Below, piece after piece: positions 1 to 11,147 of a stretch of 11,147 nucleotides of DNA. Origin of the DNA: a virus. Taxonomy: Duplodnaviria; Heunggongvirae; Uroviricota; Caudoviricetes. Each line of letters opens with the position of its first letter. The stretch's first letter is position 1. A model generated the notes under the pieces. It did no database searches, had not been told where the DNA came from, and saw only the letters and a list, made by a program, of their open reading frames with translations. The translations under genes were made by a program, and so were the position numbers. Location of the stretch: positions 1 through 11,147 of the IMG/VR virus record IMGVR_UViG_2585427748_000016; one strand, 5' to 3'.

Positions 1-1284
1 TTACTTCTTCGCCTCTGCAACCACTTTACTACCCACGCCGCGGTTATTGTATTCCCACATGCGGTTGTAGTTAGTGTCATTCAGATTGCGCTGTATTTCG
101 TCGTTATCATCTACGCTGCCGGTATTACCCGCAAACGGACGATTAGAGATCACCGCATCGGCCCACGGTTTAGCCGTGTTAAAACCTTCGTTGATGGCGC
201 TATCACGGATCACCACCTGACCGTTGGTATTGGCATCAACATCCAGCGAGCGGCCCAGTTGCGCCACACCATCACCGAAAGCATTGAAACGGCTGTTTAC
301 GGCGAGGAAACCGTAGTAAATGTTGGACAGCGTAGCCGGTGCAAACACATACGCTTCTTGCTGAGTACGTGAGTTCACCACGCGGAATTCGGTGTTATCG
401 AACACCACTGCGCCGCGACCAAAAACGATATCCACATCCCCTTCAATGTAGCTGTTGGTCACCAGCGTACGCGGCTGACGATTTGTTTCCAGACGGTTCT
501 GCACACCGCTGTTGGTGACAAAGAAGGTGTTCTGACGACCGAGAATGTTAACGTTGTTAATCTGTACCTGGTCACCATCAGTACGCAGTGCCACCGCCGG
601 ATGGTTACCTGCATCTACGCTATCGCCCAGCGTGTTTTCGATGGTCAGATTTTGCAGTTGCAGGCCATTGTTTTGTGACCAGAAGACCGCAGAGCAGAGA
701 ACACCGATACTGTCGCTGCGTTTGCTCTGGCAGCTATCGTACATATACCACGCTGGTTTACCTGGCATATATTTGCCGCGCGGGTTGACGTCGTGACGCC
801 AGTCGGCAGGGCTCATGCCACCATCAAGGGAAAGCCCAATCTTCACATCAATCGGTTTTTCACCTGTACCGTACAGAGTAATTCCACCCGGAGCGGCAGG
901 GACATATACCGTTCCCTGATACTCACCAGGCATCACGGCAATATACTGGCGCTTGTTGGTACGCTTGATAATTGCCGCATCTACCGCCGCCTGAATCGTG
1001 GTATGCGTTACACCTTGAGTGCCCGCCGGGCCGACAACAAAGTCAGGTTGCGCAGGCAGGGTAATCGGGGAAGGATTCCACGCTGCAGCACCTGGTGTCA
1101 GGGATGCAAAATAGTGTTGAGCATCGAAATTCTGCGCTTCTTTTGCCGACAGAATCGGGCGAGAAGAGGTACCAGGCGCGGTTTGATCAGAAGGACGTTG
1201 ATCGGGCGGGGTTGAGCTACAGGCGGTCAGCGTCACGCCAAAAGCCAATGCCAGCGCCAGACGGGAAACTGAAAATGTGTTCAC
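1..1284 (-). CDS. ybhC: YbhC-like outer-membrane lipoprotein (pectinesterase-like acyl-CoA thioesterase family)
   Basis: Complete 427-aa ORF with the stop codon at window position 1-3. N-terminal signal peptide with lipobox LTAC. Length and position immediately beside the lambda att core match E. coli ybhC as recalled. Confidence 0.85.
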   Translation of the reverse strand: MNTFSVSRLALALAFGVTLTACSSTPPDQRPSDQTAPGTSSRPILSAKEAQNFDAQHYFASLTPGAAAWNPSPITLPAQPDFVVGPAGTQGVTHTTIQAAVDAAIIKRTNKRQYIAVMPGEYQGTVYVPAAPGGITLYGTGEKPIDVKIGLSLDGGMSPADWRHDVNPRGKYMPGKPAWYMYDSCQSKRSDSIGVLCSAVFWSQNNGLQLQNLTIENTLGDSVDAGNHPAVALRTDGDQVQINNVNILGRQNTFFVTNSGVQNRLETNRQPRTLVTNSYIEGDVDIVFGRGAVVFDNTEFRVVNSRTQQEAYVFAPATLSNIYYGFLAVNSRFNAFGDGVAQLGRSLDVDANTNGQVVIRDSAINEGFNTAKPWADAVISNRPFAGNTGSVDDNDEIQRNLNDTNYNRMWEYNNRGVGSKVVAEAKK

Positions 1285-1315
1285 AGGTTGCTCCGGGCTA
1301 TGAAATAGAAAAATG

Positions 1316-1418
1316 AATCCGTTGAAGCCTGCTTTTTTATACTAAGTTGGCATTATAAAAAAGCATTGCTTATCAATTTGTTGCAACGAACAGGTCACTA
1401 TCAGTCAAAATAAAATCA
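1316..1418. other. attL: bacterial B arm, 15-bp core GCTTTTTTATACTAA (1331-1345), phage P' arm with Int arm-type sites
   Basis: Exact lambda att core at 1331-1345. The downstream sequence GTTGGCATTATAAAAAAGCATTGCTTATCAATTTGTTGCAACGAACAGGTCACTATCAGTCAAAATAAAATCATTATTTG matches the lambda P' arm as recalled, including the direct repeats AGGTCACTAT and CAGTCAAAAT. Upstream GAAGCCT matches the attB flank. Confidence 0.9.
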
Positions 1419-2489
1419 TTATTTGATTTCAATTTTGTCCCACTCCCTGCCTCTGTCATCACGATACTGTGATGCCATGGTGTCCGACTTATGCCCGAGA
1501 AGATGTTGAGCAAACTTATCGCTTATCTGCTTCTCATAGAGTCTTGCAGACAAACTGCGCAACTCGTGAAAGGTAGGCGGATCCCCTTCGAAGGAAAGAC
1601 CTGATGCTTTTCGTGCGCGCATAAAATACCTTGATACTGTGCCGGATGAAAGCGGTTCACGACGAGTAGATGCAATTATGGTTTCTCCGCCAAGAATCTT
1701 TTTGCATTTATCAAGTGTTTCCTTCATTGATATCCCGAGAGCATCAACATGCAATGTTGTTGGGATGGCAATTTTTACGCCTGTTTTGCTTTGCTCGACA
1801 TAAAGATATCCATCTACGATATCAGACCACTTCATTTCGCATAAATCACCAACTCGCTGCCCGGTAACAACAGCCAGTTCCATTGCAAGTCTAAGCCAAC
1901 ATGGTGATGATTCTGCTGCTTGATAAATTTTCAGGTATTCGTCAGCCGTAAGTCTTGATCTCCTTACCTCTGATTTTGCAGCGCGAGTGGCTGCGACCGG
2001 GTTTGTTGTTATATGGCCTTCAGCTATAGCCTCTCGGAATGCATCGCTCAGTGTTGATCTGATTAACTTGGCTGATGCCGCCTTGCCCTCGTCTATGTAT
2101 CCATTGAGCATTGCCGCAATTTCTTTTGTGGTGATGTCTTCAAGTGGAGCATCAGGCAGACCCCTCCTTATTGCTTTAATTTTGCTCATGTAATTTATGA
2201 GTGTCTTCTGCTTGATTCCTCTGCTGGCCAGGATTTTTTCGTAGCGATCAAGCCATGAATGTAACGTAACGGAATTATCACTGTTGATTCTCGCTGTCAG
2301 AGGCTTGTGTTTGTGTCCTGAAAATAACTCAATGTTGGCCTGTATAGCTTCAGTGATTGCGATTCGCCTGTCTCGGCCTAATCCAAACTCTTTACCCGTC
2401 CTTGGGTCCCTGTAGCAGTAATATCCATTGTTTCTTATATAAAGGTTAGGGGGTAAATCCCGGCGCTCATGACTTCGCCTTCTTCCCAT
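1419..2489 (-). CDS. int: Lambda-type integrase (tyrosine recombinase)
   Basis: 356-aa ORF next to attL, the same length as lambda Int. C-terminal catalytic motifs are present: HELRSLSARLY (His/Arg) and LLGHKSDTMASQY (His and the nucleophilic Tyr). Confidence 0.95.
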   Translation of the reverse strand: MGRRRSHERRDLPPNLYIRNNGYYCYRDPRTGKEFGLGRDRRIAITEAIQANIELFSGHKHKPLTARINSDNSVTLHSWLDRYEKILASRGIKQKTLINYMSKIKAIRRGLPDAPLEDITTKEIAAMLNGYIDEGKAASAKLIRSTLSDAFREAIAEGHITTNPVAATRAAKSEVRRSRLTADEYLKIYQAAESSPCWLRLAMELAVVTGQRVGDLCEMKWSDIVDGYLYVEQSKTGVKIAIPTTLHVDALGISMKETLDKCKKILGGETIIASTRREPLSSGTVSRYFMRARKASGLSFEGDPPTFHELRSLSARLYEKQISDKFAQHLLGHKSDTMASQYRDDRGREWDKIEIK

Positions 2490-2685
2490 TTCTGATCCTC
2501 TTCAAAAGGCTACCTGTTACTGGTCGATTTAAGTCAACCTTTACCGCTGATTCGTGGAACAGATACTCTCTTCCATCCTTAACCGGAGGAGGGAATATCC
2601 TGCACTCGCGTACCCATCGACGAACTGTTTCAAGGCTTCTTGGGCGTCGCTGGCGTGCGTTCCACTCCTGAAGTGTCAAGTACAT
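2467..2685 (-). CDS. xis: Excisionase
   Basis: 72-aa ORF whose 3' end overlaps the int start by 23 nt. Starts MYLTLQEWNARQRRPRSLETVRRW, a lambda Xis-like winged-helix N-terminus. Same length as lambda Xis. Confidence 0.9.
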   Translation of the reverse strand: MYLTLQEWNARQRRPRSLETVRRWVRECRIFPPPVKDGREYLFHESAVKVDLNRPVTGSLLKRIRNGKKAKS

Positions 2686-2724
2686 CGCAAAGTCTCCGCA
2701 ATTACACGCAAGAAAAAACCGCCA

Positions 2725-2892
2725 TCAGGCGGCTTGGTGTTCTTTCAGTTCTTCAATTCGAATATTGGTTACGTCTGCATGTGCTATCTGCGCCCACAGC
2801 ATCCAGTGGTCATAGCAGTCGCTGATGTTCTCGGCTTCGATAACTCTGTTGAATGGTTCTCCATTCCATTCACCTGTGACTCGGAAGTGCAT
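2725..2892 (-). CDS. Small exo-xis region protein (55 aa, lambda orf55-like by position and length)
   Basis: ATG at 2892 to TGA at 2725-2727 on the minus strand, translating MHFRVTGEWNGEPFNRVIEAENISDCYDHWMLWAQIAHADVTNIRIEELKEHQAA. It lies directly upstream of xis in the same orientation. It is absent from the supplied ORF track only because it is shorter than 60 aa. Confidence 0.55.
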   Translation of the reverse strand: MHFRVTGEWNGEPFNRVIEAENISDCYDHWMLWAQIAHADVTNIRIEELKEHQAA

Positions 2893-2905
2893 TTATCATC
2901 TCCAT

Positions 2906-2928
2906 AAAAAAAACTCGCCGTAGCGAGT
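2906..2928 (-). terminator. Putative intrinsic terminator downstream of the DUF1311-like gene
   Basis: Hairpin ACTCGC-CGTA-GCGAGT at 2913-2928 followed on the minus strand by a U-tract (plus-strand A-run 2906-2912). Confidence 0.5.
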
Positions 2929-3128
2929 TCAGATAAAAGAAATCCCCGCGAGTGCGAGGATAGTTATTCATTGTCGATATTTACATTTATTTCGAATATC
3001 TTTACTGGGTAATCGCCAAAGTCATATATTTTTTATTCTGTTTTATAAGCACTACCAAGTACTGCTTATTACAAATAAGAAAAGGCTGAAAAAAATATTT
3101 AAGACCACAACTGTGGCCCTAAATTTAC

Positions 3129-3827
3129 TTACGGCACTGCGTTAATCAGATTACAAATACCTCTTTTGGCAGGGTCTGAATTCAACTTCTGAAAATTGGC
3201 GTTCAACATAGCCGTGTGTAAGTGATTCTCAACCTCAAAGAATAGGTCGATTTTGCCCTCTTTGGCTGCCTGTTTCTTCCAAATATTCACTTGGTCATCA
3301 GCAATACGACTAGCGCAAGTGAACAAGAACGAACTGCCTCTAGGAATGGATGTCGTGCTGTAATACTCACCATCTACTTCTACATATTTAGCTCGGAATG
3401 ACTCTAAGGTTAGCTTATTGCCGTTCTTGACCGACTTAGCTTCTGCCTTACTTGTATCTTCCTGCTCTTTAGAATGTTTCTGCGCCGACGTGGGTATGTC
3501 ATTGGCCGCTGTTACGCTGACTGAACTCCCCAAACCTTTGAGGCCATTAATTTGGATAAGATAAGCCAGCTCCAGAGCCTTATTATCAGTGAGTTTTCCA
3601 CGCATATTTACCCACTGACGTTGAACCATTTTTAGGGTGTCTGCGTTCTCTGGGTTTCCTTTGAGGGCACTAGAATAGGCAGAGCTAAGCTGTTCGTCTA
3701 ATTTTGACAGACGTTCGTTATCGCAGATTTTATGTTCGATTGCTGTCGAAGCCTTTTGGCAGTCAAAGCTGGCTGCAAATGCACCCGGCGATGCCACTAA
3801 CAATGATGCCAGTAGGATATTTTTCAT
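3129..3827 (-). CDS. Secreted protein with N-terminal DUF1311/LprI-like domain and uncharacterised C-terminal domain (putative moron)
   Basis: 232-aa ORF from the ATG at 3827, preceded by a GGAG Shine-Dalgarno. Sec-type signal peptide MKNILLASLLVASPGAFA. The mature N-terminus FDCQKASTAIEHKICDNERLSKLDEQLSSAYSS...VQRQWVNMRG resembles the DUF1311 (LprI N-terminal) motif. The track ORF 3129-3854 starts at an upstream in-frame Met with no good RBS. Confidence 0.6.
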   Translation of the reverse strand: MKNILLASLLVASPGAFAASFDCQKASTAIEHKICDNERLSKLDEQLSSAYSSALKGNPENADTLKMVQRQWVNMRGKLTDNKALELAYLIQINGLKGLGSSVSVTAANDIPTSAQKHSKEQEDTSKAEAKSVKNGNKLTLESFRAKYVEVDGEYYSTTSIPRGSSFLFTCASRIADDQVNIWKKQAAKEGKIDLFFEVENHLHTAMLNANFQKLNSDPAKRGICNLINAVP

Positions 3828-3855
3828 ATTCACTCCATAAATACAAAAGCGCATT

Positions 3856-3890
3856 ACTATAGCACTTAACCGATCGCTTATCTCGCCCGT
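3856..3890 (-). promoter_or_regulatory. Candidate sigma70 promoter with extended -10 (TGcTATAGT) for the DUF1311-like gene
   Basis: Minus-strand sequence GTGCTATAGTAATG lies about 30 nt upstream of the ATG, in the 103-bp gap between the ea22 stop and the gene start. The -35 element is weak. Confidence 0.3.
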
Positions 3891-3957
3891 TCGTCATTCT
3901 TATCTAACCAGAACATGCGACTGCCACAGCACATGTCGAGGATTGCTGCATGTCCAG

Positions 3958-4506
3958 TCACTGGTTGCCTCCTTTGCGAAGCTGGGCGGCTAACTCATCA
4001 CATATGTGCGTCAAAGAGCAAAGTTTGATTGATGGATGTTCGCGCATCATCTCCACCCCCTGCGCCCGTACTTCAGCCAGGAAAGCATCGGTGGCTGGCA
4101 TATTTCCTGTTGCCTTCATGGCCTCCAAAATAACCAGAACACCATCTCTCCCAATCTCCTCGCAGATAACCTCGGTGCTGTCGCCAACAACATCGCAGAA
4201 TTCCTGAACTGCTTTACGAGCCAGCTCATTCTCCGCCGCCAGCGCCGAAAACTTCTCGTGTGCCAACTTAACAGCTGCATCAGCCTGCTTAATTGACTCA
4301 GTCGCTTTCTGGTGGTCTTCGGCCAGCCCTGCTAAATCAGCCTCCAGTTCGGCTAGGCGTTCATTTAATGCATCTCGTTCATCCAGTAGAGCCAGCACAA
4401 CCTGAGGTGTGACTTTCATACGAAATGCCAGCAATTTTTGAGGTGTTGCTACTGTTTCAATTGCTACTGCCGCCTCACGCAGTGCCTGAGAGTTAATTTC
4501 GCTCAC
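3958..4506 (-). CDS. ea22: Ea22-like exo-xis region protein (coiled-coil)
   Basis: 182-aa ORF with a GTG start overlapping the upstream stop (GTGA). The N-terminus MSEINSQALREAA and the LALLDERD segment match lambda Ea22 as recalled; the C-terminal two thirds appear divergent (mosaic). Confidence 0.65.
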   Translation of the reverse strand: MSEINSQALREAAVAIETVATPQKLLAFRMKVTPQVVLALLDERDALNERLAELEADLAGLAEDHQKATESIKQADAAVKLAHEKFSALAAENELARKAVQEFCDVVGDSTEVICEEIGRDGVLVILEAMKATGNMPATDAFLAEVRAQGVEMMREHPSIKLCSLTHICDELAAQLRKGGNQ

Positions 4507-4724
4507 TTCGAACCTCTCTGTTTACTGATAAGTTCCAGATCCTCCTGGCAACTTGCACAAGTCCGACAACCCTGAACGGCCAAGCGTCTTCGTTCATCTA
4601 TCGGATCGCCACACTCACAACAATGAGTGGCAGATATAGCCTGGTGGTTCAGGCGGCGCATTTTTATTGCTGTGTTGCGCTGTAATTCTTCAATTTCTGA
4701 TGCTGAATCAATGATGTCTGCCAT
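4503..4724 (-). CDS. TraR/DksA-family C4 zinc-finger protein (lambda orf73-like)
   Basis: 73-aa ORF with CCECG-(17)-CRTCASC, a CxxC...CxxC zinc finger typical of phage TraR-like proteins. Its position between orf63 and ea22 matches the exo-xis region. Confidence 0.7.
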   Translation of the reverse strand: MADIIDSASEIEELQRNTAIKMRRLNHQAISATHCCECGDPIDERRRLAVQGCRTCASCQEDLELISKQRGSK

Positions 4725-4773
4725 CTTTCATTAATCCCTGAATTGTTGGTTAATACGCTTGAGGGTGAATGCG

Positions 4774-4800
4774 AATAATAAAAAAGGAGCCTGTAGCTCC
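4774..4800 (-). terminator. Weak candidate intrinsic terminator within the exo-xis operon
   Basis: 5-bp GC-rich stem GGAGC/GCTCC (4786-4800) followed on the minus strand by UUUUUUAUUAUU. Confidence 0.25.
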
Positions 4801-4822
4801 CTGATGATTTTGCTTTTCATGT

Positions 4823-5038
4823 TCACCGTTCCTTAAAGACGCCGTTCAACAAGCCGATCGCCAGCCTTAAATGAGTCGGTGTGAATCCCATCAGCGTTAC
4901 CGTTTCGCGGTGCTTCTTTAGTACGCTACGGCAAATGTCATCGACGTTTTTATCCGGAAACTGCTGTCTGGCTTTTTTGATTTCAGAATTAGCCTGACGG
5001 GCAATGCTGCGAAGGGCGTTTTCTTGCTGAGGTGTCAT
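4823..5038 (-). CDS. Hypothetical exo-xis region protein (71 aa from the Met at 5038; the track ORF extends to 5104)
   Basis: ORF in the same orientation, tightly packed between orf63 and the orf73-like gene. The start codon is ambiguous (ATG at 5104 or 5038). No recognisable motif. Confidence 0.45.
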   Translation of the reverse strand: MTPQQENALRSIARQANSEIKKARQQFPDKNVDDICRSVLKKHRETVTLMGFTPTHLRLAIGLLNGVFKER

Positions 5039-5114
5039 TGAACAAGCCCCATGTCGGCAAGCATAAGCACACAGAATATGAAGCCCGCTGCCAGAAAAAT
5101 GCATTCAGTGGTTG

Positions 5115-5306
5115 TCATACCTGGTCTCTCTCATCTGCTTCTGCTTTCGCCACCATCATTTCCAGCTTTTGTGAAAGGGATGCGGCTAACGTATGAAATT
5201 CTTCGTCTGTTTCTACTGGTATTGGCACAAACCTGACTCCAATTTGAGCGAGGCTATGTGCCATCTCGATACTCGTTCTTAACTCAACGGGAGATGCTTT
5301 GTGCAT
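5115..5306 (-). CDS. Exo-xis region protein, lambda orf63-like
   Basis: 63-aa [40 protein letters not shown]..., matching lambda orf63 in length and position. Confidence 0.6.
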
Positions 5307-5422
5307 ACAGCTCCCCGTTTATTATTTATCTCCTCAGCCAGCCGCTGTGCTTTCAGGGGATTTCTGATAACAGAAAGGCCGGGAAGCCCAATATTTGATA
5401 CCAGACCTCTCCGCGCCGCCAT
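5279..5422 (-). CDS. Small ORF (47 aa) overlapping the orf63 start by 28 nt; possible truncated or chimeric orf60a-like gene at the deletion junction
   Basis: ATG at 5422 with an AGGAGA Shine-Dalgarno 9 nt upstream. A 28-nt overlap with the orf63 start is the same arrangement as recalled for lambda orf60a/orf63. The N-terminal part may derive from junction sequence. Confidence 0.3.
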
Positions 5423-5454
5423 GATTGTCTTTCTCCTGATGCAGGAGGCCAATA

Positions 5455-5649
5455 ATGCTTAGCCCATCTCAATCCCTTCAATACCTGAAAGGAAGCATAG
5501 AGCGGGCTTCAATGTGCACAGAGTGGATTCTATCTAGGTTTAGCGCATACAGAAGATTGCCGGTAAAGGGCATGCCAAGCAAGTCGATGCTGCATATGCA
5601 AAAGAATGCGCGCTGGAAGGTATGGCGAAAACACAGGTTATGTGGCTGA
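5455..5649 (+). CDS. Hypothetical 64-aa ORF at the junction, with a strong Shine-Dalgarno
   Basis: AGGAGG followed by 7 nt and ATG at 5455. No recognisable motif. Overlaps the ybcO-like remnant in another frame, so it may be fortuitous. Confidence 0.25.
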
Positions 5650-5672
5650 AAGAGGGGATTATTAAGGCGTGA
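5544..5672 (+). pseudogene. 3' remnant of a ybcO-like (DUF1364 nuclease family) nin-region gene, lacking a start
   Basis: The frame ending at TGA 5670-5672 translates ...[34 protein letters not shown], resembling the C-terminus of DLP12 YbcO as recalled. An in-frame stop at 5541-5543 leaves no N-terminal region. Its stop overlaps the rusA GTG start. Confidence 0.4.
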
Positions 5673-6031
5673 ATACCTACAGCATCACATTACCCTGGCC
5701 TCCGAGCAATAATCGCTATTACCGCCATAATCGCGGGCGCACGCACGTCAGCGCAGAGGGGCAGGCATACCGCGATAACGTCGCCAGAATCATTAAAAAC
5801 GCAATGCTGGATATCGGCCTGGCTATCCCTGTGAAAATCCGCATTGAGTGCCACATGCCGGATCGCCGTCGCCGTGACCTGGATAATCTGCAAAAAGCCG
5901 CTTTTGACGCACTCACTAAAGCAGGTTTCTGGCTGGATGATGCTCAGGTCGTTGATTACCGCGTTGTGAAGATGCCTGTTACCAAAGGTGGGAGGCTGGA
6001 ACTGACCATCACCGAAATGGGGAATGAATGA
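5669..6031 (+). CDS. rusA: Holliday junction resolvase RusA
   Basis: 120-aa ORF with a GTG start, [37 protein letters not shown]..., matching the RusA family (DLP12-type) in length and sequence as recalled. Confidence 0.85.
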
Positions 6032-6168
6032 TGTTTGAGTTTTATGTGGCAGAACGTCTTCGCCACCGCTGGATGCGCCTGCGCTTATATCGTTTTCCTG
6101 GTTCTGTTTTGACCGATTACCGAATACTGAAGAATTACGCCAAAACCCAGACAGGAGCAGGAGTATGA
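6028..6168 (+). CDS. ylcG: Small nin-region protein (46 aa), YlcG-like
   Basis: ATGATG start overlapping the rusA stop (ATGA), translating [46 protein letters not shown]. Its position between rusA and the Q-like gene is as in DLP12. Confidence 0.5.
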
Positions 6169-6253
6169 AGTCAGAGATAACAATCAACTAATACTGTTTT
6201 GTTGATTTTTGCTTGTAATTGGCGTTCTGGTCTGATTTTTGTGGAGTAAGTTG

Positions 6254-6637
6254 ATGCGTGATATTCAGATGGTTCTTGAGCGTTGGGGAGCGTGGGCGGC
6301 TAATAATCATGAAGATGTGACCTGGTCGTCCATTGCCGCCGGTTTTAAGGGATTAATTACTTCAAAAGTAAAATCTCGCCCGCAATGTTGTGACGATGAC
6401 GCGATGATTATTTGCGGGTGCATGGCCCGTCTGAAAAAGAACAACAGCGATTTGCACGATTTATTAGTAGATTATTATGTAGTCGGTATGACATTCATGT
6501 CACTGGCAGGTAAGCATTGCTGCTCTGATGGTTATATCGGGAAAAGGTTACAGAAGGCTGAGGGCATAATTGAAGGGATGTTAATGGCATTAGATATCCG
6601 GTTAGAGATGGATATCGTTGTTAATAACTCTAATTAA
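6254..6637 (+). CDS. quuD: Late-gene antiterminator, Q-like (QuuD type)
   Basis: 127 aa from [18 protein letters not shown]..., with GGAG 7 nt upstream. Cysteine-rich ([18 protein letters not shown]) small Q-family protein located between rusA/ylcG and the lysis genes. The track ORF begins at an upstream in-frame Met at 6239. Confidence 0.8.
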
Positions 6638-6670
6638 TATGCCAGTTGTTTACTAAAAATTATTAAAAAT

Positions 6671-6688
6671 GGGGCGTTGCAACGCCCC
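6671..6688 (-). terminator. Perfect palindrome GGGGCGTTGCAACGCCCC, probable terminator for the convergent porin gene
   Basis: 7-bp GC-rich stem with a 4-nt loop, followed on the minus strand by AUUUUUAAUAAUUUUU. Confidence 0.45.
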
Positions 6689-6776
6689 CAAAAATAAAGG
6701 GTAATATATAACAGAAGGTTTATATAGTTAGAAGCAAGGTTGTGCTCCTAAAGGAAGTGGCTTGAGGGAGCCACTT

Positions 6777-6816
6777 ATATGTTGGGGAGGCAAAGCCTCC
6801 CGCAACATATCTTTTT
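6777..6816 (+). terminator. Long hairpin plus T-run between the Q-like gene and the porin 3' end (bidirectional terminator region)
   Basis: ATATGTTGGGGAGGC-AAA-GCCTCCC(G)CAACATAT: a stem of about 15 bp with one bulge, followed by CTTTTT at 6811-6816. It lies 10 nt beyond the porin stop, so it may serve both strands. Confidence 0.5.
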
Positions 6817-6826
6817 CGTAATCAGA

Positions 6827-7924
6827 TTAGAACTGGTAAACCAGACCTACAGCAACGATGTCATCAGTGCTTACACTGAGTGCTTTAGTGAAGTCATTTT
6901 TGTCAAGCAGGTTGATTTTGTAATCAACGAAAGTAGACATATTTTTGTTGAAGTAATAGGTTGCACCTACATCAACATATTTGACTAAGTCCTGATCGCC
7001 CCATACTCCAAGATCCTTACCTTTAGATTGCAGGTAAGCAACGGACGGACGCAGACCGAAATCGAACTGATATTGTGCAACAGCTTCGAAGTTTTGGGCT
7101 TTATTAGCAACGAAGTGATCAGCAAATACAGTCATATTCTGGGTTTCAGAATAGGTAGTGGCCAGGTAAATGTTGTTAGCGTCATATTTCAGACCTGCGG
7201 CCCAAACTTCTGCATTTTTACCGGAAGCAAATACTTCAGGAAGAACTTTCCCTGCATTAACTTGAGTGTCGGTACGATCAGATTTCGCATAAGTTGCACC
7301 GATACCGAATCCTTCGTATTCATAGGTAGCAGAGAAACCGAAGCCATCACCGTTACCTTCAGTGTAGTTATCGAAATCGCTACGATCGTTTTTGCCTTGG
7401 TACTGAGCAGCAAAGTTCAGACCATCAACCAGACCAAAGAAGTCGTTGTTACGATAGGTTGCAACACCAGTTGCACGTTGAGTCATGAACACGTCGGTTT
7501 GAGTCCAAGTGTCACCACCGAATTCTGGCAGGACGTCAGTCCACGCGCCGATGTCGTATGCTACACCGTAGTTACGGCCGTAATCGATGGAGCCGTAGTC
7601 ACCGAATTTCAGGCCTGCAAATGCAAGACGGGTTTTGTCTTTGGAGGAGCCTTGAGATTCAGCGCGGTTGCCTTTGAATTCATATTCCCACTGACCGAAA
7701 CCAGTCAGTTGATCGTTGATTTGGGTTTCACCTTTGAAGCCAAGACGGGCATAAGTAGTATCACCATCATCTGCATCATTAGAGGAGAAGTAGTGCTTAG
7801 CATTAACTTTCCCGTACAGATCCAGCTTGTTACTGTCTTTATTATAAATTTCAGCTGCCTGAGCAGACATCGCCATCAGTACTGATGCAGCTACAGCAGA
7901 AATTGCCACTGTTAATTTTTTCAT
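6827..7924 (-). CDS. nmpC: Outer-membrane general porin, OmpC/OmpF/PhoE/NmpC family (prophage moron)
   Basis: 365 aa from [23 protein letters not shown], a signal peptide with AQA cleavage site. Mature protein starts [16 protein letters not shown], with a porin-typical C-terminal VGLVYQF ending in Phe. Uninterrupted in this window. The track ORF starts at an upstream Met at 7984. Confidence 0.85.
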
Positions 7925-8351
7925 CGTGAGCCCTTTTTTTGAACTATTATTAAAAAATGATGTCACTGCGCGATAAATATTCATCTAATCAATGTGATTA
8001 TTTCAAGATGTAAGTTTTGGTTTCTCGTTTGATTTGTGAAGTAGATCTCTATTTTTATCTGAACTTTTTTCTATCGAATCCTATTCATGGCTCTTGGCTG
8101 AATAAAAATAAATCTGTTAGCCAATTTATATTAACGGCTGTTATTTATAAGTGCTCTATAATTTGAAGGTTCAATTTAAACCGGCTAAAAATAACACTGG
8201 AAATTATTTGTTGGTTATTTGTTGAGATTTTCTTATGTATTTGTAGTGGTGTTTTCAATACTCGGTAGCATTCTCGCAAATATCATTTAGTGGTTTACGT
8301 ACGTAAAAAATTGGTTATGCTGTTAAGAGTGGTTACTTCGTCACACAGCTT

Positions 8352-8380
8352 AAACCCGCCGTCGAGCGGGTTTTTCCATT
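8352..8380 (+). terminator. Intrinsic terminator-like hairpin upstream of the holin (tR'-like; the late promoter is probably just upstream)
   Basis: AAACCCGC-CGTCGA-GCGGGTTT stem-loop followed by TTCCATTTTTT, about 120 nt upstream of the holin start. Confidence 0.45.
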
Positions 8381-8496
8381 TTTTGAGTCTCGATATTAGC
8401 TGATAACCCAATACCTGAGTTATTCACTGACTCCGAGTCTGTTACGTTTCGTAGTATTCCCTCAATTTACACCCGCTTTGTCTGCGAGGTGGGGTT

Positions 8497-8712
8497 ATGA
8501 AATCCATGGATAAGTTAACAACGGGTGTCGCCTATGGCACCTCAGCAGGTAGTGCCGGGTACTGGTTTTTACAGCTGCTAGATAAAGTCACGCCCTCACA
8601 GTGGGCGGCAATTGGAGTGCTGGGTAGCCTGGTATTTGGCCTGCTGACGTACCTGACAAACCTTTATTTCAAGATTAAAGAAGATAAGCGCAAGGCTGCG
8701 AGAGGTGGATAA
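8497..8712 (+). CDS. S: Class II holin (phage 21 S-type pinholin) with dual-start motif
   Basis: 71 aa, [26 protein letters not shown]..., with Met1 and Met4 (holin/antiholin dual start), two TM segments and a charged C-terminus. GAGGTGG RBS. Confidence 0.85.
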
Positions 8713-9209
8713 TGCCTCCATCATTACGAAAAGCTGTTGCTGCTGCTATTGGTGGCGGGGCTATTGCTATAGCATCTGTATTAATCACTGGCCCAAGTGG
8801 TAACGATGGTCTGGAAGGTGTGAGACATAATCCTTACAAAGACATAGTTGGTGTATGGACTGTATGTCACGGGCATACAGGAAAAGACATCATTCCCGGT
8901 AAAACGTATACCGAAGCAGAGTGCAAAGCCCTCCTGAATAAAGACCTTGCCACTGTCGCCAGACAAATTAACCCGTACATCAAAGTCGATATACCGGAAA
9001 CAACGCGCGGCGCTCTTTACTCGTTCGTCTACAACGTGGGTGCTGGCAATTTCAGAACATCGACGCTTCTTCGCAAAATAAACCAGGGTGATATTAAAGG
9101 CGCATGTGATCAGCTACGTCGCTGGACATATGCTGGCGGTAAGCAATGGAAAGGTCTCATGACTCGTCGTGAGATTGAGCGTGAAATCTGTTTGTGGGGT
9201 CAGCAATGA
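8712..9209 (+). CDS. R: SAR endolysin (phage 21 R-type lysozyme)
   Basis: 165 aa. The start overlaps the holin stop (TAATG). Gly/Ala-rich N-terminal signal-anchor-release segment [20 protein letters not shown], followed by a T4-lysozyme-like catalytic region. Confidence 0.85.
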
Positions 9210-9667
9210 ACAGAGTAACCGCGATTATCTCCGCTCTGGTTATCTGCATCATCGTCGGCCTGTCATGGGCTGTTAATCATTACCGTGATAACGCCATTAC
9301 CTACAAAGCCCAGCGCGACAAAAATGCCAGAGAACTGAAGCTGGCGAACGCGGCAATTACTGACATGCAGATGCGTCAGCGTGATGTTGCTGCGCTCGAT
9401 GCAAAATACACGAAGGAGTTAGCTGATGCGAAAGCTGAAAATGATGCTCTGCGTGATGATGTTGCCGCTGGTCGTCGTCGGTTGCACATCAAAGCAGTCT
9501 GTCAGTCAGTGCGTGAAGCCACCACCGCCTCCGGCGTGGATAATGCAGCCTCCCCCCGACTGGCAGACACCGCTGAACGGGATTATTTCACCCTCAGAGA
9601 GAGGCTGATTACTATGCAAAAACAACTGGAAGGAACCCAGAAGTATATTAATGAGCAGTGCAGATAG
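9206..9667 (+). CDS. Rz: Rz i-spanin
   Basis: 153 aa from [23 protein letters not shown] (N-terminal TM), then coiled-coil. ATGA overlap with the endolysin stop. Near-identical to lambda Rz as recalled. Confidence 0.85.
9426..9608 (+). CDS. Rz1: Rz1 o-spanin lipoprotein, embedded in the +1 frame of Rz
   Basis: 60 aa, [20 protein letters not shown] with lipobox VVGC, then a proline-rich mature part [15 protein letters not shown]. Fully contained within Rz. Confidence 0.85.
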
Positions 9668-9698
9668 AGCTGCCCATATCTATGGGCAACTCATGCAA

Positions 9699-9992
9699 TT
9701 ATTGTGAGCAATACACACGCGCTTCCAGCGGAGTATAAATGCCTAAAGTAATAAAACCGAGAAATCCATTTACGAATGTTTGCTGGGTTTCTGTTTTAAC
9801 AACATTTTCTGCGCCGCCACAAATTTTGGCTGCATCAACAGTTTTCTCCTGTCCAATTCCCGAAACGAAGAAATGATGGGTGATGGTTTCCTTTGGTGTT
9901 ACTGCTGTCGGTTTGTTTCCAACAGTAAACGTCTGTTGAGCACATCCTGTAATAAGCATTGCCAGAGCGGCAGAAAACAACATTTTTTTCAT
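9699..9992 (-). CDS. bor: Bor lipoprotein (serum-resistance, Iss-like)
   Basis: 97 aa from MKKMLFSAALAMLITGC, with lipobox LITGC. The track ORF 9699-10040 starts at an upstream in-frame Met. Confidence 0.85.
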   Translation of the reverse strand: MKKMLFSAALAMLITGCAQQTFTVGNKPTAVTPKETITHHFFVSGIGQEKTVDAAKICGGAENVVKTETQQTFVNGFLGFITLGIYTPLEARVYCSQ

Positions 9993-10108
9993 CTTATTAT
10001 CCTGCATTGTTAAAAACGGCAGAATCCTATGTGACAACAATTAAACGATAGTTAAATGGATTGATGAAAATTAAAACTATATAGGTGGATGCTCAGCCTA
10101 TTGGAGGA

Positions 10109-10117
10109 GGGGGGGGG
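10109..10117. repeat. Homopolymeric G9 tract in the intergenic region upstream of bor
   Basis: GGAGGAGGGGGGGGGCACTC; nine consecutive G at 10109-10117. Confidence 0.9.
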
Positions 10118-10354
10118 CACTCAGAATCCTGTGGAATGAAATAAACCGCTCTTTCTGTCCATTACCCTTTTAGCTGCGCTGTATCGTCGCCGTATTCCCG
10201 CATTAACCATGACCGTAGCCCGACGGGGAATTCCTTCTGCGTGAGTGTGCGGGAATAATCAAAAACGATGCACACCGGGTTTTACTGTGCTGACAGACGC
10301 AGGGTTACCCTCATAGTCGCTTTTCCGGTGCGATGGTGGAAGAAACCGGGATGT

Positions 10355-10549
10355 TTATTCATCATCACTCTGGATTGATGTATATGCTCTCTTTTCTGAC
10401 GTTAGTCTCCGACGGCAGGCTTCAATGACCCAGGCTGAGAAATTCCCGGACCCTTTTTGCTCAAGAGCGATGTTAATTTGTTCAATCATTTGGTTAGGAA
10501 AGCGGATGTTGCGGGTTGTTGTTCTGCGGGTTCTGTTCTTCGTTGACAT
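10355..10549 (-). CDS. Small basic protein, YlcI-like (DUF3950 family), adjacent to cos
   Basis: 64-aa ORF MSTKNRTRRTTTRNIRFPNQMIEQINIALEQKGSGNFSAWVIEACRRRL..., with an Arg-rich N-terminus and a ribbon-helix-helix-like segment. In DLP12 the position just before the nu1 homolog is occupied by ylcI, as recalled. Confidence 0.5.
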   Translation of the reverse strand: MSTKNRTRRTTTRNIRFPNQMIEQINIALEQKGSGNFSAWVIEACRRRLTSEKRAYTSIQSDDE

Positions 10550-10699
10550 GAGGTTGTCCCGTATTCAGTGTCGCTGATTTGTATTGTCTGAAGTTGTTTT
10601 TACGTTAAGTTGATGCAGATCAATTAATATGATACCTGCGTCATAATTGATTATTTGACGTGGTTTGATGGCCTCCACGCACGTTGTGATATGTAGATG

Positions 10700-10937
10700 A
10701 TAATCATTATCGCTTTACGGGTCCTTTCCGGTGATCCGACAGGTTACGGGGCGGCGACCTCGCGGGTTTTCGCTATTTATGAAAATTTTCCGGTTTAAGG
10801 CATTTCCGTTCTTCTTCGTCGTAACTTAATGTTTTTATTTAAAATACCCCCTGAAAAGAAAGGAAACGACAGGTGCTGAAAACGAGCTTTTGGGCCTCTG
10901 TCGTTTCCTTTCTCTGTTTTTGGCCGTGGAATGAACA
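10700..10937 (+). other. cos region: cosQ side, cosN with 12-nt cohesive end GGGCGGCGACCT (10749-10760), cosB
   Basis: The sequence ...GGTGATCCGACAGGTTACG|GGGCGGCGACCTCGCGGGTTTTCGCTATTTATGAAAATTTTCCGG... matches the lambda right-end/left-end junction as recalled. Confidence 0.9.
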
Positions 10938-11147
10938 ATGGAAGTCAACAAAAAGCAGCTGGCTGACATTTTCGGTGCGAGTATCCGTACCATTCAGAAC
11001 TGGCAGGAACAGGGAATGCCCGTTCTGCGAGGCGGTGGCAAGGGTAATGAGGTGCTTTATGATTCTGCCGCCGTCATAAAATGGTATGCCGAAAGGGATG
11101 CTGAAATTGAGAACGAAAAGCTGCGCCGGGAAGTTGAAGAACTGCGG
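10938..11147 (+). CDS. nu1: Terminase small subunit Nu1 (5' part; truncated by the window end)
   Basis: ATG at 10938, translating MEVNKKQLADIFGASIRTIQNWQEQGMPVLRGGGKGNEVLYDSAAVIKWYAERDAEIENEKLRREVEELR, matching the lambda Nu1 N-terminus. It has no stop within the window, so it is absent from the ORF track. Confidence 0.9.
   Translation, partial: MEVNKKQLADIFGASIRTIQNWQEQGMPVLRGGGKGNEVLYDSAAVIKWYAERDAEIENEKLRREVEELR

Follow-up and report, generated by a model that had tools for sequence, protein, structure and literature searches.

An intact NmpC/Lc-type porin gene between the antiterminator gene Q and the lysis genes of a lambda-like prophage

Introduction

A porin gene in reverse orientation between the antiterminator gene Q and the lysis genes has been described since the 1980s, in the form of nmpC in the cryptic E. 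coli K-12 prophage DLP12 (qsr') and lc in phage PA-2. Work by Castillo-Keller from 2006 is said to have found that lc of PA-2 is an intact, expressed porin gene in the interval between Q and S, and that its 3'UTR lowers host OmpC. In reviews, nmpC of E. coli is paired with Salmonella ompD as its counterpart. In the Q cassette as described, the pR' unit immediately adjoins the Q gene (10.1101/651190). For the lysis operon of K-12, RpoE and a Q-type antiterminator are cited as regulators (PMC7918800).

Here we describe such a locus in a stretch of 11,147 nucleotides (IMG/VR record IMGVR_UViG_2585427748_000016, positions 1 to 11,147), referred to below as the window. The window carries an intact copy of the NmpC/Lc porin gene, which has long been known and is common in lambda-like E. 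coli prophages.

Results and Discussion

Gene order and prevalence

The genes of the locus are as follows.

6254-6637, + strand: Q antiterminator gene, QuuD type, 127 aa (Pfam, K-12 quuD, Q of 933W)
6827-7924, - strand: NmpC/Lc-type general porin gene, 365 aa (Porin_1, PDB alignments, identity to K-12 nmpC)
7856-7924, - strand: porin signal peptide, 23 residues (start of the PDB porin alignments)
6885-6888, no strand assigned: empty IS5 target TTAG, read as CTAA on the porin strand (filled by IS5 in K-12 and 434B)
8497-8712, + strand: holin/antiholin, S21-type (phage 21) (Pfam Phage_holin_2_1; essD in relatives)
8712-9209, + strand: endolysin, SAR-type (Pfam Phage_lysozyme; rrrD in relatives)
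9206-9667, + strand: Rz (Pfam Phage_lysis; rzpD in relatives)
9426-9608, + strand: Rz1 (part of the late lysis cassette 8497-9667)

The porin gene is transcribed towards Q and away from the lysis operon. The stop codon of Q (6637) and the ATG of the holin (8497) are 1859 bp apart. This interval is 99.3% identical to the quuD-nmpC-essD locus of K-12 DLP12, and the two prophages share the order rusA-ylcG-quuD, reversed nmpC, then essD-rrrD-rzpD-bor. They differ in their integration. The window prophage has a lambda-type integrase and occupies the attachment site of lambda beside ybhC, whereas DLP12 lies at argU. The porin is also reversed between Q and holin in 434B, MEI005 and six other phages. 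Of 5426 complete E. coli genomes, 2361 cover at least 80% of a query made of Q, porin and holin, as do 36 phage records; the 3' end of the window's porin allele is uninterrupted in 760 genomes. As the arrangement has been known for DLP12 nmpC and PA-2 lc for decades, it is not a new observation.

The Q protein matches Pfam Phage_antitermQ (PF06530) over its full length (E 3.5e-53), and its gene is identical to K-12 quuD at 383 of 384 nt. It shows 78% amino acid identity to Q of 933W and likewise 78% to Q of VT1-Sakai, and it distantly matches the solved Q21 structures 6p18 and 6jnx. The QuuD type is without the last ~18 residues of Q933W.

The porin gene is intact

The porin reading frame opens at MKKLTV; an in-frame ATG upstream of it, at 7984, is probably not used. 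The protein matches the whole of the Pfam Porin_1 profile (positions 1-337 of 337; E 2e-156), scoring 521 bits where the cutoff is 23.7. It contains the PEFGG constriction motif of loop 3 (in VLPEFGGD) and ends in VYQF, with the C-terminal aromatic residue that serves barrel assembly. Residues 1-23 were assigned as the signal peptide because the PDB chains of mature OmpC, OmpF and PhoE align to residues 24-365, directly after AQA. The protein belongs to the OmpC family and is predicted to form a trimeric outer-membrane pore. By sequence it shares the Pfam family and the 16-strand fold of OmpC, OmpF, PhoE and Salmonella OmpD. Unlike these chromosomal porins, the one in the window is carried by a prophage and is followed by an ipeX 3'UTR.

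When IS5 is removed in silico from K-12 nmpC, the two genes are identical at 1090 of 1098 nt (99.3%) and the proteins at 364 of 365 residues. In K-12 the element sits after codon 346, and the record of phage 434B carries the annotation 'IS5 insertion after codon 346'. IS5 is absent from the window porin, and the TTAG into which it inserted in K-12 is intact at 6885-6888.

The coding sequence has a GC content of 44.3% and the whole window one of 46.1%. The 5' spacer between the porin and the holin (7925-8496, 572 bp) has 34.8% GC, its porin-proximal 326 bp only 29.1%, and it is 99.3% identical to that of DLP12. These results bear out the initial annotation on several points: an intact, nmpC-like porin of the OmpC family with a signal peptide, on the opposite strand, keeping Q and the holin about 1.86 kb apart; the missing IS5 interruption of K-12; and about 570 bp of AT-rich DNA on the 5' side. 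The comparison with DLP12 nmpC that it proposed gives the near identity of the two loci reported above.

The 3' side of the porin

Three overlapping elements lie between Q and the porin.

6660-6826, - strand: porin 3'UTR, ipeX equivalent, 167 nt (identity to the K-12 spacer, fold)
6661-6688, - strand: intrinsic terminator of porin/ipeX, a palindrome with a T-rich tail (terminator scan)
6755-6816, + strand: two adjacent hairpins followed by CTTTTT, candidate intrinsic terminator of the Q transcript

The hairpins 3' of the porin are, by their identity and fold, the published ipeX regulatory 3'UTR. The spacer is identical to that of K-12 at 184 of 189 nt (97.4%), and the RNA folds into five hairpins (-62.4 kcal/mol, z = -7.9). 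Counted from the base after the stop codon of the porin up to the terminator's T-tail, the 167 nt presumably equal the length of ipeX. According to the literature, the ipeX 3'UTR lowers OmpC and OmpF. PA-2 lc is alike in being a phage porin between Q and S with an ipeX 3'UTR, a likeness drawn from the literature and not from sequence. Most of the changes among eight ipeX homologues affect loops, bulges and unpaired stretches; some hit stem pairs. RNAalifold found no compensatory pairs among these eight, which are too similar for covariation to be informative. At the gathering threshold there were no Rfam matches in the whole window. At E up to 1, the region 6600-8520 gave two matches at chance level, Trp_leader (20.8 bits, cutoff 41) and a snoRNA. 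Neither ipeX nor the pR' RNA seems to be represented by an Rfam family.

The terminator of the porin is the perfect palindrome at 6671-6688 (GGGGCGTTGCAACGCCCC). The terminator scan of the - strand gives it 7 pairs, 6 of them G-C, and the tail ATTTTTAATA; among homologues the stem is invariant and the loop variable. The second structure reads in the other direction. It consists of a 15-pair bulged hairpin at 6777-6810, followed on the + strand by C and TTTTT (6812-6816), and of a neighboring hairpin at 6755-6776; both together fold with -36.2 kcal/mol (z = -5.5). On the - strand, 6755-6816 corresponds to hairpins 1 and 2 within the ipeX 3'UTR. The T-run after 6777-6810 is found on the + strand only, where 4-5 T are present in 7/7 aligned sequences (six phages and the window). 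The long hairpin is for this reason not the porin's own terminator, and 6777-6816 probably terminates the Q transcript. The two hairpins that the initial annotation had placed at 6671-6688 and 6777-6816, on the 3' side of the porin, thus lie where they were said to, and only the first of them serves the porin as a terminator.

The 5' spacer: porin promoter and late promoter

Four elements were located upstream of the porin.

7925-8123, - strand: PnmpC region and porin 5'UTR (K-12 literature, conservation, candidate hexamers)
7940-7973, + strand: sigmaE-like TGAACTA-N16-TCACT, +1 at A7973 (read directly from the sequence)
8294-8321, + strand: pR' homologue, TTTACG, 16-bp spacer, TATGCT, predicted start near A8328 (weight matrix, homology)
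8324-8385, + strand: initial transcribed region (TAAGAGTGGTTAC...) and the hairpin 8352-8373 with its T-run, candidate Q-loading/pause region and tR'

In K-12, PnmpC is abolished by deletion of -199 to -1, its transcript starts at a G as determined by 5' RACE, and it is activated by CRP and repressed by OmpR, IHF and MprA (PMC11677980). The corresponding stretch of the window, 7925-8123, differs from K-12 at one base, and 7930-8065 is almost invariant in an alignment of six phages. The built-in promoter scan with its strict rule returned no sites in 7925-8496. It was replaced by a simple weight-matrix scan, whose call of the porin promoter is a guess. On this prediction the candidate hexamers would be TTGAAA (-35, 8006-8001) and GAATAT (-10, 7982-7977), with the start at G7971 or G7969. 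A candidate CRP-like site, TGTGA-N6-TCTCT at 8036-8051, would form part of the same promoter.

The initial annotation had suggested promoter prediction in 7925-8496 for the late promoter as well. The top sigma-70-like site on the + strand of this interval is TTTACG-16-TATGCT at 8294-8321 (weight matrix, 6.9). Its counterpart in alignments with 933W and VT1-Sakai is their annotated pR', which comes directly after Q. Positions 8293-8375 match the DNA annotated in these phages as pR', qut and terminator, and 8294-8385 is homologous to their cassette of pR', initial transcript and hairpin. Upstream of the late genes there is a promoter-like site followed by a promoter-proximal hairpin with a T-run (8294-8321 and 8352-8373), and both elements are homologous to those annotated in 933W. 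In the Sakai Stx phages the pR' start has been mapped by dRNA-seq, 258 nt from the 3' end of tR' (PMC7547250). This start falls on the base homologous to A8328. Of the 28 positions of the promoter, 27 are invariant in six aligned porin-carrying phages. The block 8324-8385 hardly varies between the window, 933W, SfII and PhiR40_1, while its flanks differ; SfII and PhiR40_1 carry different - strand cargo between Q and the late cassette.

The hairpin at 8352-8373 has 8 pairs and the tail TTCCATTTTT in the terminator scan, which found no second terminator-like site between it and the holin. In the Sakai phages, the pR' transcript has its mapped 3' end at a second terminator (PMC7547250). With that end 258 nt from the start, the homologue of the hairpin 8352-8373 may terminate inefficiently there.

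The pR' homologue begins 1657 bp past the stop codon of Q, with the porin unit between them. The window therefore departs from the cassette of 10.1101/651190 in that Q and pR' are both present and not contiguous. It shares Q (78%), the promoter, the initial transcribed block and the first hairpin with the Stx phages 933W and VT1-Sakai. In these phages, however, the Q gene runs with its 3' end into pR', and the cargo (tRNAs, stx) follows tR' on the strand of Q and is controlled by Q. In the window the cargo is on the opposite strand between Q and pR', outside that control.

Two further candidates were rejected. A direct-repeat Q-binding element like that of Q21, made of GTGGTT(T)AC at 8290 and 8329, was dropped because only the downstream copy is kept in 933W, SfII and PhiR40_1. 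A small RNA like StxS was dismissed because the homology to the Stx phages stops just past the first hairpin, before the StxS region.

Where late transcription starts

The initial annotation left it between a late start downstream of the porin and antisense readthrough across it. The homology of 8294-8385 to the pR' cassette of the Stx phages favors the former, and late transcription most likely starts near 8328, without an antisense crossing of the porin. That the late promoter instead lies immediately after Q, as in lambda, with Q-modified polymerase crossing the porin antisense and 6777-6816 acting as tR', we regard as highly improbable. There is a weak sigma-70-like site at 6677-6705 (TTGCAA-17-GGTAAT, 6.2 against 6.9 for the site at 8294), and the + strand hairpin with its T-run lies ~70-110 nt past it, which mimics a canonical pR'-tR' arrangement. 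Yet this site is homologous to none of the annotated pR' promoters, its -35 element falls inside the palindrome of the porin terminator, and the sequence that follows Q in 933W is found here at 8294-8385. Readthrough would also collide with an active porin promoter. In addition, a reporter fusion of the K-12 lysis operon gave an output that varied with pH and osmolarity (PMC7918800). By primer mapping its fragment corresponds to the window from 7852 to ~8619, wholly downstream of the porin start codon.

The same reporter raises another possibility, namely that an RpoE promoter by the porin start codon (+1 near 7973) mainly drives the lysis operon, as reported for 'essDp' of K-12. The pR'-like block would then be part of a ~524-nt leader, and the envelope-stress regulon of the host would have taken over the cassette. 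PMC7918800 cites RpoE as a regulator and numbers the fragment -121 to +650 'according to' Rueggeberg 2015. As the primers map to 7852 and ~8619, this numbering puts +1 at A7973. The sigmaE-like motif lies exactly at this reconstructed position, is conserved across six phages (ev017 has a single substitution in the -35-like element), and is probably the published RpoE-dependent 'essDp'. In the literature, the lysis operon of DLP12 apparently has an RpoE-dependent promoter near 7973, ~355 bp upstream of the start predicted for pR', which is at odds with a simple sigma-70 pR' picture. Against this, the +1 position is a reconstruction from a citing paper, and the conservation of the motif is explained equally well by the overlapping porin 5'UTR on the opposite strand. 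The spacer is absent from a list of constitutive sigmaE promoters obtained by genomic SELEX; a peak of the RpoS holoenzyme is listed between insH and essD. A sigmaE promoter could also coexist with pR' instead of replacing it. We consider control mainly by RpoE possible but on balance unlikely. Very unlikely, in our view, is that the porin is intact yet a silent remnant that leaves the cell unaffected, for example through H-NS silencing of its AT-rich promoter. The promoter region has 29% GC, K-12 tolerates the loss of nmpC, and the prophage is heavily deleted, having lost N, cI, cro, O and P. After this loss Q may never be expressed here, which we also counted against our preferred model. The coding sequence, on the other hand, is free of defects, free-living phages show almost no variation in the promoter block, and the K-12 promoter, with 1 mismatch in 199 bp, drives detectable nmpC-IS5 mRNA.

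A porin moron probably bypassed by late transcription

We conclude that the locus is very probably an intact nmpC/lc moron placed between Q and a Q-responsive late promoter, with phage late transcription bypassing the porin unit. As a self-contained unit of lysogenic conversion, the porin unit is a classic moron. It has its own promoter (from the K-12 literature) and its own terminator (from the scan), and Q and pR', which abut in 933W, are 1.66 kb apart in the window. In base composition the picture is mixed: the promoter spacer has 29-35% GC, but the coding sequence has 44.3%, beside 46.1% in the window.

The porin would be transcribed from its own CRP-activated promoter within 7925-8123, and the 365-aa trimeric protein would be exported by means of its 23-residue signal peptide. 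The transcript would continue through the 167-nt 3'UTR (6826-6660), the ipeX equivalent that lowers OmpC and OmpF, and would end at the hairpin 6688-6671. Q, encoded at 6254-6637, presumably acts in trans on the pR'-pause-terminator cassette (8294-8385), which follows the Q gene after 1.66 kb and precedes the holin by about 170 nt. Polymerase starting near 8328 would halt at the hairpin 8352-8373, the presumed terminator, unless modified by Q. The + strand hairpin and T-run at 6777-6816 would stop unmodified transcription leaving Q, so that the porin would be shielded from antisense transcription.

A further reading is that the Q mRNA, ending at 6816, and the porin/ipeX RNA, ending at ~6660, form a mutual switch by tail-to-tail antisense overlap, which we think quite unlikely. 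With these ends the overlap would be ~155 nt, and the Q 3'UTR would be a perfect antisense of ipeX. After induction, transcription reaching Q would destroy or block the porin/ipeX RNA, and in the lysogen porin transcription would damp leaky Q message. If this were true, the convergent orientation would be functional and not accidental.

Conclusion

With the late promoter of Q most likely downstream of the porin, the Q-porin-lysis layout is ordinary and already known. The porin locus opens no new question, and its value is modest; it helps the annotation of a strain carrying this prophage. Reverse-strand cargo can part Q from its target promoter in lambdoid phages of the Q933/QuuD type, so pR' need not abut Q. 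For the host, an intact NmpC/Lc porin with ipeX can change outer-membrane permeability and lower OmpC and OmpF, which can alter how sensitive the cell is to antibiotics, colicins and OmpC-using phages.

Prophage setting

The window opens with ybhC followed by a lambda-type integrase and an excisionase, which places it as a lambdoid prophage occupying the lambda attachment site. The genes needed here are as follows:

1–1284, minus strand, ybhC, at the window start
1419–2489, lambda-type integrase
2467–2685, excisionase
3129–3827, minus strand, secreted-looking 232-aa protein with a weak match to the LprI (lysozyme inhibitor) domain (E 2e-5), between xis and an Ea22-like gene
5669–6031, rusA, followed by ylcG and then Q
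6254–6637, plus strand, Q antiterminator, 127 aa, PF06530
6827–7924, minus strand, porin
8497–8712, plus strand, S21-type holin
8712–9209, lysozyme, followed by Rz/Rz1, the Bor/Iss lipoprotein gene, and ylcI
9699–9992, minus strand, Bor-family lipoprotein gene, named iss (increased serum survival) in the closest genomes

This prophage is derived from a longer one by deletion. Strain E5 has a related element whose left arm matches positions 2–5385, and strain MEI005 has a full prophage whose nin-to-late arm matches 5374–11,147; these matches share 12 bases (5374–5385), the joint between the arms. The left arm, with int, xis, LprI-like, Ea22-like, TraR/DksA-like, and DUF1382 genes, meets the nin region directly, a short way upstream of rusA. 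The genes exo, bet, gam, kil, cIII, N, the immunity region (cI, cro), O, P, and most nin genes are absent. The LprI-like gene may be further accessory cargo. A second gene for lysogenic conversion is Bor/iss, which comes right after the lysis cassette, on the reverse strand.

The porin locus

The initial annotation described an intact OmpC-family porin gene with a signal peptide on the strand opposite to Q and the holin, and this holds. The translation is unbroken over 365 residues, starting MKKLTV, and the Pfam Porin_1 match spans the entire profile (E 2e-156). The mature chains of OmpC, OmpK36, PhoE, and OmpF align from residue 24 to the final residue; the signal peptide is thus 23 residues long, ending in AQA. 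The PEFGG motif of loop 3 and the C-terminal YQF are both found. The gap between the Q stop and the holin start, put earlier at about 1.86 kb, measures 1859 bp. The roughly 570 bp of AT-rich DNA described on the porin 5′ side correspond to 572 bp (7925–8496) with 34.8 % GC, against 46.1 % for the window, and the porin-proximal 326 bp have 29.1 % GC. The K-12 IS5 is missing, as annotated, and its TTAG target is whole at 6885–6888.

Comparison with the nmpC locus of DLP12, the cryptic prophage of K-12, shows near identity: 383 of 384 positions in Q, 184/189 in the Q–porin spacer, 568/572 in the 5′ spacer, and 1090/1098 in the porin gene after removal of IS5 in silico, with one amino-acid difference. 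This is the already known nmpC/lc porin locus, which published work credits to Blasband 1986 and Highton 1985, with its regulatory 3′UTR element ipeX. Only the strand assignment of the hairpins and the placement of the late promoter pR′ are added here.

With the 2.7-kb stretch 6200–8900 as query and at least 80 % of it covered, the layout occurs in 2361 of 5426 complete E. coli genomes, the matched places being annotated quuD, porin, essD, and rrrD. Thirty-six phage records show it as well, among them mEp332, 434B, the PhiR series, Kati, Turner, ev243, ev207, and ev017. A 120-nt probe spanning TTAG 6885–6888 was unbroken in 760 of the 1059 genomes carrying the window's allele, so intact copies are common. 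Positions 1447–5038 of the laboratory phage 434B are the Q–nmpC::IS5–holin segment of K-12 DLP12, annotated as a "region of 434 nonhomology"; 434B evidently acquired it from its K-12 host through recombination.

The hairpins on the porin 3′ side had been read together as bracketing the gene. The palindrome at 6671–6688 is a perfect one of 18 bp, and the long bulged hairpin (6777–6810, then CTTTTT) is present. Their roles differ, however, because the T-run (6812–6816) lies on the plus strand. The porin transcript passes the hairpins 6810–6777 and 6776–6755 and two more, none with a U-run after it, and then reaches the 6688–6671 hairpin with the tail AUUUUUAAUA, which the terminator scan scores on the minus strand. 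From the base after the porin stop (6826) to the tail end (6660), this 3′UTR is 167 nt, with a predicted fold of −62.4 kcal mol−1 (z = −7.9). Eight homologues differ mainly in loops, bulges, and unpaired parts and to some extent in stem pairs, and no compensatory changes were found. On the plus strand, 6755–6816 resembles an intrinsic terminator and may end transcription coming out of Q. The two predicted terminators stand face to face, ending at 6816 (plus) and about 6660 (minus). This would give the Q and porin transcripts a shared stretch of about 155 nt, with the Q 3′UTR antisense to ipeX.

In K-12, the porin promoter PnmpC is lost on deletion of −199 to −1, and 5′ RACE gave a G as the start; it is described as sigma-70-type, CRP-activated, and OmpR-, IHF-, and MprA-repressed (PMC11677980). 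One base differs between the window and K-12 within this stretch, and 7930–8065 is nearly invariant among the phages aligned. By prediction only, the candidate PnmpC comprises a −35 TTGAAA (8006–8001), a −10 GAATAT (7982–7977), a start at G7971 or G7969, and a CRP-like site (8036–8051).

The late promoter

The initial annotation left two options: late transcription starts downstream of the porin or reads through it antisense. When the phage collection was searched sensitively with the 572-bp spacer as query, full-length matches came only from porin-carrying phages. Around 300 further records, mostly Stx phages, match spacer positions 369–451 alone (window 8293–8375). In the Stx phages 933W and VT1-Sakai, this stretch is annotated as pR′, qut, and terminator and starts within the last codons of Q. 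Aligned with 933W, the window keeps the −35 TTTACG, the block TAAGAGTGGTTAC, and the hairpin AACCCGCCG...CGGGTTTTT; the −10 is TATGCT, against TATCAT in 933W. The two Q proteins are 78 % identical over 126 residues and diverge only C-terminally.

For the Sakai Stx phages, the pR′ start was mapped by dRNA-seq and the 3′ end at the terminator tR′ by Term-seq, and the start lies 258 nt upstream of that end (PMC7547250). Counting 258 nt back from the second VT1-Sakai terminator leads to an A homologous to A8328. A weight-matrix scan of 7925–8496 gave TTTACG-16-TATGCT (8294–8321) as its top plus-strand site. Among six divergent porin-carrying phages, 8286–8449 is nearly invariant, whereas the mid-spacer (about 8085–8285) varies. 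The K-12 fragment equivalent to 7852–8619, which starts within the porin signal-peptide codons, served as a lysis-operon reporter fusion whose output changed with pH and osmolarity (PMC7918800). Taken together, these data favor the first option: the Q-responsive late promoter most likely sits downstream of the porin, and late transcription need not cross the gene.

A sigmaE-like site must also be weighed. The reporter fragment is numbered −121 to +650, following Rueggeberg 2015 (PMC7918800), and mapping its primers with this numbering puts +1 at A7973. The plus strand at 7940–7973 reads TGAACTA-N16-TCACT-N5-A, with A7973 six bases downstream of the motif, and overlaps the porin 5′UTR of the opposite strand. 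We take this to be, probably, the published RpoE-dependent essDp. If real, this start gives a leader of about 524 nt containing the pR′ cassette, and the two promoters could coexist. We rank it below pR′ as the phage late promoter, as a secondary, host-controlled input.

The mapped 3′ end in the Sakai phages lies at the second terminator (PMC7547250), so the homologue of the 8352–8373 hairpin may terminate poorly there. In the window, the scan before the holin found no terminator-like site other than this hairpin. In the leader between hairpin and holin, a 16- or 17-nt CTGCTTTTTTGCGATA-like segment at 8449/8450 is present in Turner, PhiR29_1, ev243, ev207, and ev017 and absent in the window, K-12, and PhiR70_1. 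A perfect TATAAT (8157–8162, plus strand) is invariant in all seven aligned sequences (six phages and the window) within the otherwise variable mid-spacer; no recognizable −35 accompanies it.

The gap between Q and pR′

Compared with 933W, the window carries extra DNA that starts near codon 120 of Q (about 6614) and ends at about 8292. A self-contained minus-strand unit parts Q from its probable target. In PhiR40_1, a PF06530 Q is followed by a minus-strand ORF of 148 aa (990–1436) and then the conserved pR′–hairpin cassette. SfII has minus-strand ORFs, including one of 340 aa at 421–1443, directly upstream of the conserved cassette and holin. Neither the 148-aa nor the 340-aa ORF has a Pfam match. 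Neither the porin unit nor other cargo in this gap depends on Q, in contrast to stx of the Stx phages, positioned downstream of tR′. The interval from Q to pR′ seems to be a tolerated, recurrent slot for reverse-strand morons, that is, self-contained lysogenic-conversion units.
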